Of a DNA stretch of 64,000 nucleotides, positions 17,605-28,886 are shown in pieces. The notes under the pieces are model-generated. The model ran no database searches, was not told the origin of the DNA, and saw nothing but the letters and a program-made list of their open reading frames with translations. Source of the DNA: Bdellovibrionota bacterium (GTDB lineage: Bacteria; Bdellovibrionota_C; UBA2361; OMII01); NCBI GenBank assembly GCA_044345405.1, contig JBIJBE010000003.1, forward strand, positions 8,427 to 72,426. Reading direction: 5' to 3'. Every line of letters begins with the position of its first letter. Position 1 is the stretch's first letter. Made by a program: the position numbers and the translations under genes.

Positions 17605-18270
17605 ATGGCAGGTTTAAAAGTTGGTCAATCAGCGCCACGATTCTCACTTAAAGATAAGGATGGAAAGGCGCACTCGCTTGATGCGTCCAAAGTTGACTAC
17701 ACGGTGCTCTATTTCTATCCAAAGGATGACACACCGGGTTGCACGCTTGAGGCGAAGGAGTTCTCTCAGTTTCTTGAGAAATTCACCTCCCGTAATGTGC
17801 GCGTTGTTGGCGTATCGGGTGGCGACGAAAAGACAAAAGCGAAGTTCTGCGCGAAGTACTCACTTAAGGTTCCCCTTGTTTCGGATACTAATTTCAAGGT
17901 GGCGAAGTCTTATGGCGCGTATGGCACGAAGCAGTTTATGGGGCGAACATTTCAGGGGATCTTCCGGAAGACCTTCCTCCTGGATAAAGCCGGAAAGATC
18001 GCGCGCATCTTCGATACTGTAAAGCCTGAAGGGCACGCCGAGGAGGTTTTGGCGGCTATCGATGAACTTTCGAAGAAGGGGGGCGTGAAGAAAGCTACCG
18101 CTAAGCCGGCCGCGAAGACGAAAAAGGCCCCCGCGAAGAAAGCGATCGCTACAAAGAGCGCGGTAAAGCGAGGTAGTAAGGCCAAGCCGGCTCGCGCGGC
18201 AGCGCCGAAGCGAGCCGCACGTAAAGCGACCGCCGCTCGTAGCGCCAAGAAGGCAACGAAAAAGAAGTAG
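17605..18270 (+). CDS. bcp: Thiol peroxidase / peroxiredoxin (Bcp family) with a C-terminal histone-H1-like Lys/Ala-rich tail. The six-frame ORF extends 5' to 17323, but the ATG at 17605 has an AGGAG RBS.
   Basis: Prx core (YFYPKDDTPGCTLEA contains the peroxidatic Cys; VVGVSGGDEKTKAKF). The last ~75 aa are KKATAKPAAKTKKAPAKKAIATKSAVKRGSKAKPARAAAPKRAARKATAARSAKKATKKK. Confidence 0.8.
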   Translation: MAGLKVGQSAPRFSLKDKDGKAHSLDASKVDYTVLYFYPKDDTPGCTLEAKEFSQFLEKFTSRNVRVVGVSGGDEKTKAKFCAKYSLKVPLVSDTNFKVAKSYGAYGTKQFMGRTFQGIFRKTFLLDKAGKIARIFDTVKPEGHAEEVLAAIDELSKKGGVKKATAKPAAKTKKAPAKKAIATKSAVKRGSKAKPARAAAPKRAARKATAARSAKKATKKK

Positions 18271-18323
18271 TCAGTTTTCGCGTAGTGCTCGAGAGCGGGG
18301 GCATCTCCGCTCTCGGGTCACTC

Positions 18324-19043
18324 CTACGCTACCCACGGAAGGAACGACCAGAAGCTCGGCTCATCAGCTGGGTCGTGCATAATATCACGAGCGATACACC
18401 TTCCAGCCTCATTTACCATCGCCTCGGTGTAGAGCATGTCGGATCGTTGCGAGGTCAGTCCAAACGTTCCGCTCACCTCGAACATGTCGTGTCTGTTCGT
18501 GACAACTCGTGAGGTTCCGTACCAGAGGGTCGTTCCTGAATCGGCATCGATAATTTTGGTGTGAATAGTCCACTCATCGAGGCGAGAGAGTCGCTCGAGA
18601 TATCCTACGAGGACGAGATCGTATCCCGCGGTGCGGGCGAGTGAGAGCGCCCCGAAGTTGCCGGTAAAGAAGTCATCCTTCTTGCCAGGCCAGTCTTGAC
18701 GATTGAATACCTCAATTATCGGAAGGGTATCGTATGCGAGCAGCTCTCGTTGGGTTGTCCATCCGAGTTGATCGCTAATTCCCGGAAGCTCAGAGTTCTG
18801 AGCGGTAAAGTTTGCCTGCGTCACGAAGGGGATAACCGCCATGCGCGCGGTGACACCACCCTTAAACCGCTGATCTATGAAGGCGGGAATGTCTGTCCGA
18901 ACATAGGCACGGGTTGTGCAAGTCTCGCCCGTGTGGCGAAAGAGCATCGCGCAGCTGGATAAAATTACCGGGAGTGTCAAAAGACTGACACGGAGAGCAC
19001 CCCGGATCCAGGTTGAAGTTTTTAAGGATGAAGCTAATTGCAT
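18324..19043 (-). CDS. Lipoprotein of the CsgG/FlgO/LpoB-like superfamily. The start is chosen at the Met that gives the signal peptide MQLASS...LPVILSSC.
   Basis: Lipobox LSSC and a GYDLVLVGYLE motif resembling CsgG/FlgO-family cores. The six-frame ORF runs on to 19280, but that extension overlaps the neighbouring gene. Confidence 0.45.
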   Translation of the reverse strand: MQLASSLKTSTWIRGALRVSLLTLPVILSSCAMLFRHTGETCTTRAYVRTDIPAFIDQRFKGGVTARMAVIPFVTQANFTAQNSELPGISDQLGWTTQRELLAYDTLPIIEVFNRQDWPGKKDDFFTGNFGALSLARTAGYDLVLVGYLERLSRLDEWTIHTKIIDADSGTTLWYGTSRVVTNRHDMFEVSGTFGLTSQRSDMLYTEAMVNEAGRCIARDIMHDPADEPSFWSFLPWVA

Positions 19044-19052
19044 GAGGTTACT

Positions 19053-19937
19053 ATGTTTACTCCAGTAGGTCTGAAAACCGGACATACACTTCTCTCGAGA
19101 GTTCAAAGAGTATGCCAGGTTCTGGGCGTTTGCACCGGTATTTTGCTTCTGGGTGCCGCTGGATGTAGCCCTCGCTACGATGACATGCCGGCGTATTGGC
19201 CGATTCCGAATAAAGATTACGACAACTACGGCCCTGGGCGTTTCAAGACCTCCCTCCTCGCGGCTCAGATTGATCGCCACTACCGAGGCTCGGCACCCGG
19301 TCCGATCGGTGTGACAACCTTCGTGAACGTTGATGATCTGTACTCCTCAAGCACTTTTGGACGCATGGTTGGAGAGCAGCTCATGAGTGAACTCGCGATG
19401 AAGGGATTCGATGTTATTGAGCTCCGTCACACCGATGCGCTGCAGTTCCTTGATCGTGGTGGAGAGTTCGCGCTTTCTCGTGACGCGGGTATGGTTCGAC
19501 CGGAGCGAAATCTCGCTGGTGTGGTTGTCGGCACCTACGTGGCTTCGCCAGAGCGGGTGTACGTCAACGCGCGCCTCATCGATCCCTCTACCTCAGTCGT
19601 GCTCTCAGCCGGTTCCGTTGAGATGAGCAAGACTCCCGAGCTGACGAAGCTTCTTCGTGGAGGAAGTCTCCCAGGATCGCTGGAGCGTATCCCCGTTCGA
19701 CACCTCGGAAATGTAACGCAGCAGATCGATCCAACCGAGACCTCTCGACGACGATGGAGTCAGGAGGAGGGAGGATGGGATATTCCTCAGACAGCTCCTG
19801 TGCCAAGCAGCCCTTCAGCGGCGCTTCCGTCAGCCCCTGTTTCGCCCAAGAGTTCGGCGAGCGCTCCTAAGGTTCTGAGCCAGCCCGAGGTTAGTGTGAA
19901 GGACGATGGAGTGGGTCCGGTCGTGAAGGTTCAATAG
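19053..19937 (+). CDS. FlgO/LPP20-like outer-membrane lipoprotein with a Pro/Ser-rich C-terminal tail
   Basis: Lipobox LLLGAAGC. The FlgO-like core is GVTTFVNVDDL...GFDVIE...LAGVVVGTYVASPERVYVNARLID. Confidence 0.45.
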   Translation: MFTPVGLKTGHTLLSRVQRVCQVLGVCTGILLLGAAGCSPRYDDMPAYWPIPNKDYDNYGPGRFKTSLLAAQIDRHYRGSAPGPIGVTTFVNVDDLYSSSTFGRMVGEQLMSELAMKGFDVIELRHTDALQFLDRGGEFALSRDAGMVRPERNLAGVVVGTYVASPERVYVNARLIDPSTSVVLSAGSVEMSKTPELTKLLRGGSLPGSLERIPVRHLGNVTQQIDPTETSRRRWSQEEGGWDIPQTAPVPSSPSAALPSAPVSPKSSASAPKVLSQPEVSVKDDGVGPVVKVQ

Positions 19938-27698: not shown

Positions 27699-28886
27699 AT
27701 GACCATCCCGCCGAGTGACCAAACCCCCGTTGCTGAGCCAGCTCCGGCTGCGGCGTGGGAGCGGTGCGAGGTGATCGATGATGGGGACCGCTTTTTTACA
27801 GCGCTTGAGGCCGCAATCGATGCGGCAACCGTGAGCGTTGATGTCGAGTTTTACATCTTCTCCACGGACCAGACGGGGCAACGGTTCTTTGAGGTTCTCA
27901 CTCGCGCGGCTCGGAGGGGTGTGGTGGTTCGTCTTCTGATTGATGGTATCGGCTCAACCGGCTTCGCTCGTAGTTACCGGGAGCGCGCGAAGGCAGCTGG
28001 AATTCTCGTTCGAGTGTTTCACGAACCTCCGTGGGAGCGGTGGCGGTGGTGGCAGCGGCGTCGAGGAGGGGTGGAGAGGAGGTCGACCTGGCGCCGAGTA
28101 TTTCGTCGCCTTAATCATCGCAATCATCGAAAGCTCTGTATTATCGATGGCCGGACCGCGTTCGTTGGAAGTTTTAATGTGACGCGGTATCACCTCGCCT
28201 CTGAGATGGGTACGGCGGCGTGGCGAGATACCGGTGTCATCGTTGAGGGATCAGAGATCTCACTACTTCGTAATACCTTCGAGGATATCTGGATCGGAAA
28301 GTTCCAACGCCTGAAGCGCAAGATCCGACGAAAACGATTGAAGACCAGCCCGCTCGTTAGATTAAATGTGACCGGAAAGCAACGGCGGGAGAACTACCTC
28401 GATCTCTTGGTGAGACTTCTTCGCGCGCGACAGCGAATTTGGATAACGAACGCTTACTTCGTTCCGGATGGTTCATTACTTCGGGTGCTCTCAGTGGTGG
28501 CTCGAGAGGGGATAGATGTGCGAATACTCGTGCCCGGTTTCTCTGACGTCGTGTTTATTCCTTGGATAACCTCAGCTTTCCATTTCGGTCTCCTCTCCGC
28601 TGGGGTTAAAATATTCGAATACCGCGGCTCGGTGCTGCACGCGAAGACGATGGTGATCGATGAGTGGGGGCTGATAGGCTCAAGCAACCTCAATCATAGA
28701 AGTCTGTTGCACGACCTTGAGGCGGATATCGTGGTAACGGATAAGGGTTCGCTCAAGAGTTTGAGCGATCAGTTCGTGACGGATCTCGGTCGCTCCGTCG
28801 AAGTGACCCTTGATAATTGGCGTCAACGTCCGTTTATTGAGAGGTTGCTCGGTCGGGTTCTTCTCTGGTTTAGGTATGTTCTGTAA
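27699..28886 (+). CDS. Phospholipase D / cardiolipin-synthase-family protein with two HKD motifs and a Trp/Arg-rich insertion
   Basis: HKD motifs NHRKLCIIDGRTAFVGSFN and HAKTMVIDEWGLIGSSNLNHRS. The unusual insert is PPWERWRWWQRRRGGVERRSTWRRVFRR. Confidence 0.75.
   Translation: MTIPPSDQTPVAEPAPAAAWERCEVIDDGDRFFTALEAAIDAATVSVDVEFYIFSTDQTGQRFFEVLTRAARRGVVVRLLIDGIGSTGFARSYRERAKAAGILVRVFHEPPWERWRWWQRRRGGVERRSTWRRVFRRLNHRNHRKLCIIDGRTAFVGSFNVTRYHLASEMGTAAWRDTGVIVEGSEISLLRNTFEDIWIGKFQRLKRKIRRKRLKTSPLVRLNVTGKQRRENYLDLLVRLLRARQRIWITNAYFVPDGSLLRVLSVVAREGIDVRILVPGFSDVVFIPWITSAFHFGLLSAGVKIFEYRGSVLHAKTMVIDEWGLIGSSNLNHRSLLHDLEADIVVTDKGSLKSLSDQFVTDLGRSVEVTLDNWRQRPFIERLLGRVLLWFRYVL

Follow-up and report, generated by a model that had tools for sequence, protein, structure and literature searches.

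The gene examined here lies on the plus strand of the window, the whole 64-kb stretch of DNA that was analysed. It encodes a peroxiredoxin of the Bcp/PrxQ type that continues in frame into a polycationic tail. The features of the locus are as follows.

17561–17566, plus strand: candidate −10 hexamer TATACT, conserved in five of six aligned upstream regions, with a putative promoter role
17592–17596, plus strand: Shine-Dalgarno sequence AGGAG, read from the sequence, 8 nt 5′ of the ATG and invariant in the upstream alignment
17605–18270, plus strand: whole coding sequence of the Bcp/PrxQ protein with polycationic tail, 221 amino acids plus stop (ATG at 17605, TAG at 18268–18270)
17605–18072, plus strand: peroxiredoxin core, residues 1–156, predicted thioredoxin fold with the last helix at 144–159
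17740–17742, plus strand: codon of the peroxidatic Cys46, in PGCT within P39-x3-T43-x2-C46 (PxxxTxxC), aligned with Cys48 of Xanthomonas PrxQ
17848–17850, plus strand: codon of Cys82, probable resolving cysteine of the helix α3 type, which corresponds to Cys84 in an ungapped alignment to 5iiz/5iox
17965–17967, plus strand: codon of the active-site Arg121, an invariant column
18073–18267, plus strand: polycationic tail, predicted to be disordered, residues 157–221, 65 amino acids, KKGGVKKATAKPAAKTKKAPAKKAIATKSAVKRGSKAKPARAAAPKRAARKATAARSAKKATKKK
18290–18315, no strand assigned: GC-rich hairpin of 9 bp, CGAGAGCGG / 8-nt loop / CCGCTCTCG, between the convergent bcp and minus-strand ORF 18324–19280

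The initiating methionine is identical in the orthologs, whose proteins begin with MAGLK, MPSLK or MADLK. A longer ORF with a TTG start at 17323 is unsupported because the orthologs share the ATG-encoded methionine. The reading frame runs from core into tail without a stop codon, as it does in every ortholog, which rules out the tail as a separate ORF or as the product of a frameshift. The original prediction placed a Bcp core and a basic tail in one ORF with no stop between the two domains; the 221-codon frame and its match to AhpC-TSA bear this out, and the separate-ORF alternative fails. The opposite strand holds a 98-residue ORF rich in Ala, Leu, Arg and Phe (17952–18248, minus strand), which is a compositional shadow of the Lys and Ala codons of the tail and not a gene. 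The whole protein carries a net charge of +33, with a calculated pI of 10.2.

Flanked on both sides by minus-strand genes, bcp stands alone. The upstream neighbour encodes an HpcH/HpaI-family aldolase; the product of the downstream one has no Pfam match, and FlgO comes next. Further upstream are FlhA, a TPR protein, a response-regulator/HisKA protein and an RNase D-like exonuclease. The downstream gene order is kept in the closest relatives. The neighbours show no tie to DNA metabolism, oxidative stress or a peroxide regulon, and no secretion genes were found near bcp. The GC content is even across the window (52–59%) and gives no hint of a foreign island near bcp. Two of the downstream ORFs, the Pfam-less 18324–19280 (minus strand) and the FlgO ORF 19038–19937 (plus strand), overlap by ~240 nt; gene calls of 207–253 amino acids in the relatives imply that the minus-strand gene starts later, and is shorter, than ORF 18324–19280. 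Flagellar genes occur on either side of bcp (FlhA at 11840–13753, FlgO at 19038–19937), so the organism is probably motile.

The candidate −10 hexamer belongs to a conserved block (17530–17604), common to five of six relatives, in which TATACT is followed by a leader of roughly 40 nt (17567–17604, CACATCGTCTAnCACTACAGGAG). A scan for sigma-70 consensus promoters did not call the hexamer, and a search upstream of bcp for an OxyR/PerR-like palindrome found no operator-like repeat. The hairpin at 18290–18315 is a candidate terminator. Neither strand shows a U-tract after it, which sets it apart from canonical intrinsic terminators, and it was not reported by the terminator scan. An Rfam scan of the whole 64-kb window gave no match.

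Residues 6–134 match the Pfam AhpC-TSA family with an E value of 1.3e-33 (116 bits; cut-off 26), and residues 5–146 match Redoxin with 78 bits. The NCBIfam model PRK09437 (thioredoxin-dependent thiol peroxidase) is covered from position 1 to 154 of 156 and scores 139.5 bits, its cut-off being 140. The AlphaFold2 model, computed with an 83-sequence alignment as input, has block-mean pLDDT values of 80–93 over residues 1–160, and the top Foldseek matches of the core are all Bcp/PrxQ structures, with target-normalised TM-scores of 0.87–0.93. The best sequence match in the PDB is Xanthomonas campestris PrxQ/Bcp (PDB 5iiz, 3gkk, 3gkn), with an E value of 1.7e-25 over an ungapped alignment of residues 20–154 and a target-normalised Foldseek TM-score of 0.87. 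Its Cys48 and Cys84 are the counterparts of Cys46 and Cys82, and this is the cysteine pair mutated in PDB 5io2 (C48S) and 5iph (C84S). The fold and the catalytic apparatus, including the conserved PxxxTxxC motif and the Arg, are shared by the protein with Xanthomonas PrxQ and E. coli Bcp. Across 83 aligned homologs, P39, T43, C46, C82 and R121 never vary, and the peroxidatic cysteine proposed earlier in PGCT is thereby confirmed as Cys46. No cysteine occurs five residues past Cys46 (C46-T-L-E-A-K), and the protein is therefore not of the E. coli CxxxxC type. Judged by these matches and by the modelled fold, the protein is a PrxQ/Bcp peroxiredoxin with a complete set of catalytic residues. The predicted activity follows an atypical 2-Cys mechanism, with the resolving cysteine on helix α3 and thioredoxin as the reductant. 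The enzyme part by itself is ordinary. The solved Bcp/PrxQ proteins, however, end at ~156–163 amino acids, whereas the protein described here is 65 residues longer, the added segment being polycationic and predicted to be disordered; its core is also basic, with a net charge of +7.

The tail contains 21 Lys, 21 Ala, 5 Arg, 5 Thr and 4 Pro residues and neither Asp nor Glu, which corresponds to 32% Lys, 32% Ala, 8% Arg, 8% Thr and 6% Pro and to a net charge of +26. Its length depends on where the core is taken to end: the ~75 residues of the original prediction are obtained when counting from the end of the Pfam domain, whereas the count used here starts after the final helix of the core and gives 65. 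The block-mean pLDDT drops to 40–55 from residue 161 onward, and no secondary structure is predicted past residue 159. Only one residue of the tail is large and hydrophobic. No amphipathic helix was found in it, the best helical hydrophobic moment (0.32) being lower than that of 94% of shuffled sequences, and a membrane-inserting amphipathic helix is ruled out by this value. The tail had also been described as an AKP repeat, and this did not hold: Tandem Repeats Finder detected no array spanning the tail DNA, only one 19-nt match (10-nt period, 1.9 copies, score 31), no repeats are visible in the tail peptide, and Pro accounts for only 6% of the residues. When the tail alone was submitted to Pfam, no family was returned at E values up to 10, and a homology search with the tail alone yielded 697 word-sharing candidates, none at E ≤ 10. 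Two NCBIfam models, for adenylate kinase and for ValRS, matched it weakly in their own tail portions (E 0.3–0.6), a hint that such tails also occur on enzymes without a link to DNA.

The fusion is real and the tail is under purifying selection. Comparison with the closest ortholog DNA (L044, 92% identity) gave dN/dS values of 0.042 for the core and 0.21 for the tail. Two remoter orthologs, for which synonymous sites are near saturation, gave 0.03–0.05 and 0.20–0.38, respectively. Purifying selection is thus five times weaker on the tail than on the core. Among the 221-residue orthologs the Lys/Arg positions are kept while the small residues between them vary. Since the basic register is kept, the spacer residues vary and disorder is predicted, selection on the tail appears to act mainly through the charge pattern of what the model depicts as a disordered polycation.

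A six-frame scan of the 64-kb window found no Lys/Ala-rich segments besides the Bcp tail, and in 59 kb of flanking sequence from eight related loci such segments occur only in the Bcp orthologs. Within these ~120 kb of window and relatives' flanks the tail thus does not reflect a compositional habit common to the lineage, and a Lys/Ala bias of the whole proteome can be dismissed over the same span. The only other notable basic stretch in a long ORF is KFQRLKRKIRRKRLK, which is strongly basic and internal to the 395-residue ORF at 27699–28886 (plus strand).

Bcp proteins with similar tails, for which a database search had been proposed along with the original prediction, proved common among the relatives. 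Among the query and its 120 closest database clusters at 90% identity, 121 sequences in all, 110 have a basic tail of at least 25 residues, down to ~52% identity to the query, and tails occur again in a clade that includes Kofleriaceae. The 110 tails have a median length of 63 residues, with a near-clade range of 26–95, and a median net charge of +0.38 per residue. Pooled, they consist of 29% Lys, 22% Ala, 9% Arg, 8% each of Thr, Ser and Val, 6% Pro and 5% Gly, with less than 1% Asp and Glu together, and 78 of the 110 end in a Lys/Arg cluster. The proteins are named simply "peroxiredoxin Q/BCP" in the database. The nearest genomes are MAGs of uncultured bacteria that carry the label Pseudomonadota, Proteobacteria or Deltaproteobacteria. 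After them comes a protein from a Bdellovibrionota MAG, which is 66% identical and has a basic extension of 10 residues only; tail-less relatives also occur at 66–70% identity. Basic extensions of 10–16 residues (for example ALKPKVGPKR) are found in several homologs (L006 4001–4480, P0088, P0101, P0104 and P0106) and bridge the tail-less Bcp proteins and those with tails of 60–95 residues as a continuum of lengths.

The wider survey covered 1.84 billion representatives at 50% identity, 12,017 of which are Bcp-like. Among the best 150 of the 12,017, basic C-terminal tails are present in 32; they are very diverse, reach 185 residues and include perfect PAAKK and PVAKK arrays. A second clade of tailed Bcp proteins, which includes MAGs of Kofleriaceae (Myxococcota), was reached by a search from P0196, one of the 32. 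The top 120 matches of that search comprise 56 proteins with repeat-type tails and 57 without a tail, the latter at 72–74% identity. The tails of this clade (P0196, P0299–P0417; partly Kofleriaceae-labelled) are built of tandem PAAKK, PAKKA or TPAKKAPA units over 38–125 residues, which suggests growth by repeat expansion. The presence of a clade with tails beside tail-less kin argues that the architecture is recurrent. Parsimony on a neighbor-joining tree of 162 cores requires at least 27 changes of tail state, a rough count given the short alignment, some fragments and a match list in which tail-bearing proteins are over-represented because the tail adds score. Although the figure is approximate, it is clear that basic tails have repeatedly been gained on, or lost from, Bcp.

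The basic core was considered as a companion of the tail. The raw set gave a median core charge of +7 for tail-bearing and +2 for tail-less proteins (p 3e-11), whereas the 50%-identity representatives gave +2 for both (p 0.39). The difference is gone at the 50%-identity level and is an artefact of phylogenetic redundancy.

The tail shares a Lys/Ala-rich, acid-free, disordered composition with the chlamydial Hc2/Hc1, Bordetella BpH1 and the C-terminal domain of eukaryotic H1, which, however, are stand-alone nucleoid proteins and not enzymes. The HC2 family (PF07382) scores some ortholog tails below its gathering cut-off of 40 bits (P0040 26.3, P0059 31.9 and P0036 17.3 bits) and does not match the window's own tail, and a Pfam scan found no linker-histone winged-helix globular domain. 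The earlier likening of the tail to H1, Hc2 and AlgP thus stands only for its Lys/Ala-rich composition, there being no Pfam family, no H1 globular domain, no repeats and only 6% Pro; "H1-like" accordingly denotes composition and a probable mode of action, not homology.

The PhaF and AlgP proteins of Pseudomonas also carry a disordered Lys/Ala/Pro C-terminal domain on an unrelated N-terminal module; these tails bind DNA, carry cargo and position it at the nucleoid or at polyphosphate granules (PMC9239181). Their tails are tandem KPAA arrays of at least 154 residues, in contrast to the non-repetitive tail with 6% Pro seen here, and the cargo here is an enzyme and not a granule protein. Tandem repeats of the K-P-A-A type are absent from this tail but present in Kofleriaceae homologs, for example P0301 and P0317 (PAAKK). 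By these sequence comparisons the protein is not a member of the HC2, H1 or KPAA-repeat family. Low-complexity Lys-rich tails on an enzyme or repair factor are further known from actinobacterial TopA (PMC7398561) and from mycobacterial Ku, where they take the form of PAKKA repeats (PMC3553676); both bind DNA, and the tails modulate DNA binding. TopA and Ku, however, already act on DNA, whereas a peroxidase has no DNA substrate, and a tail on the latter would therefore create a DNA association and not reinforce one.

The yeast peroxidase Dot5/nTPx is localised via nuclear import and is not known to depend on a polycationic tail. It is likewise a Bcp-type peroxidase that resides with the genome, and its structure (PDB 2a4v) matches the protein with an E value of 3.3e-13, but it is eukaryotic and has only 24% sequence identity. 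The Bcp core also serves as a module in the Thermotoga Bcp–nitroreductase fusion (PDB 4eo3), in which the partner is a folded redox domain and not a disordered polycation. The closest functional analogue would be Dps. Dps resembles the tailed Bcp in concept, as an antioxidant held on DNA via a flexible Lys-rich extension, at its N- or C-terminus, and no DNA-binding fold (PMC6300522, PMC12642551). It differs in being a ferritin-like dodecamer with ferroxidase activity and much shorter tails, and experiments have shown that it binds DNA, whereas the tailed Bcp is known from sequence.

The reading favoured here is that the tail tethers the peroxidase to DNA and thereby provides local protection, with a probability of about one half. 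Cys46 would attack the peroxide and Cys82, on helix α3, would resolve the resulting sulfenic acid. No hydrophobic signal peptide can be read at the N-terminus and the tail forms no amphipathic helix, so a cytoplasmic protein that does not insert into membranes is expected, and the enzyme would depend on thioredoxin. Having no fold of its own, the tail would act by its charge of ~+26 through multivalent, sequence-independent contacts to a cellular polyanion; with 26 positive and no negative charges on a flexible chain, polyanion binding is expected. The partner would most probably be chromosomal DNA, such that peroxide is removed beside the nucleoid ahead of Fenton damage to the DNA. Polyanion binding, DNA as the partner and protection are each inferred. 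The sequence does not separate DNA from other polyanions, and DNA is the most likely partner given the precedents of Dps, PhaF/AlgP and Ku/TopA. The points against a role at DNA are that the tail has no recognised DNA-binding domain, that no family threshold is passed, that the neighbouring genes are uninformative, that core charge does not follow tail presence among the 50%-identity representatives, that a +25 GFP in E. coli bound ribosomes, that the tail of AlgP lies on polyphosphate granules, and that the weak adenylate kinase and ValRS matches hint at such tails on enzymes unconnected with DNA.

Ribosomal RNA is the most abundant cytoplasmic polyanion, and the tail might anchor the peroxidase to ribosomes or RNA instead of DNA, as a translation-associated antioxidant. 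The overall charge of +33 and the weak ValRS match of the tail noted above agree with such a role, as does a GFP supercharged to +25, which in E. coli was mostly ribosome-bound and did not co-localise with DNA (PMC5726854). That GFP, however, carries its charge on the surface of a folded domain, unlike a flexible tail, and among natural disordered tails rich in Lys, Ala and Pro, those studied so far (PhaF, AlgP peptides, Ku, TopA, Dps and HU) bind DNA; for Dps and HU it is the Lys-rich extensions that do so (PMC6300522). Anchoring to ribosomes is considered unlikely. Polyphosphate granules or anionic phospholipids as the ligand are quite improbable. AlgP, with its H1-like KPAA tail, is enriched in and localised to polyphosphate granules, and its tail is needed for granule spacing (PMC9239181), but no link to polyphosphate metabolism was found among the neighbours of bcp. 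Binding to phospholipids would place at the membrane an enzyme whose counterparts in other bacteria prefer lipid or alkyl hydroperoxides, a location in keeping with the title of the closest solved homolog, which describes an alkyl-peroxide-reducing Bcp (3gkn/3gkm). The single large hydrophobic residue of the tail and its low hydrophobic moment (0.32, below 94% of shuffles) stand against it.

The tail might also not tether at all and serve instead as a solubility tag or "entropic bristle", attract an acidic thioredoxin, tune turnover or stability, or be a weakly constrained by-product of repeat expansion. Tail sequence and length differ widely by clade (26–95 residues in the near clade and up to 185 elsewhere), gain and loss seem easy (at least 27 changes on the rough neighbor-joining tree, and tail-less kin at 66–74% identity), and the tail is under a fivefold weaker constraint than the core. 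The exclusion of acidic residues, the kept basic register and an omega of ~0.2 nevertheless point to selection for dense positive charge, which a solubility tag would not need, and the cost of a +26 tail amid cytoplasmic polyanions argues for a binding purpose; a tail without a tethering function is fairly improbable. Positive charge at the C-terminus is typical of some type IV secretion substrates, and relatives bear the labels Bdellovibrionota or Deltaproteobacteria, taxa with predatory members, so that the C-terminus could be an export signal or the cell-penetrating segment of a delivered effector. This is highly improbable: the Lys/Ala-rich tail of 65 residues is far longer than type IV signals, no secretion genes lie nearby, and the architecture occurs on many unrelated contigs with no conserved secretion context.

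Tethering to DNA can be extended to a bolder proposal, which is held tentatively and is on balance doubtful. The tailed Bcp proteins would be recurrent, convergent chromatin-resident peroxidases of uncultured former Deltaproteobacteria, namely the lineage of the window and the Kofleriaceae, in which the tail co-condenses the enzyme with DNA and measurably lowers oxidative DNA damage. If true, they would parallel, in bacteria, both Dps and the nuclear Bcp-type peroxidase of yeast.

A literature search in full text, with most subscription journals outside its scope, returned no description of a Bcp or other peroxiredoxin with an H1-like or Lys-rich tail, an absence that is not proof. The principle of a Lys-rich disordered tail on a functional module is already well known. 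Should the tail prove to be an appendage under little constraint, nothing would set the gene apart from an ordinary bcp. Peroxiredoxins are usually seen as freely diffusing scavengers. A selected +26 tail that has arisen more than once would mean that some bacteria place peroxide removal on a polyanion, be it the nucleoid, ribosomes or polyphosphate. The tailed Bcp would then be a simple natural test case for the sorting of enzymes by charge-only disordered tails in the bacterial cytoplasm, and it would also bear on whether local scavenging shields DNA better than bulk scavenging.
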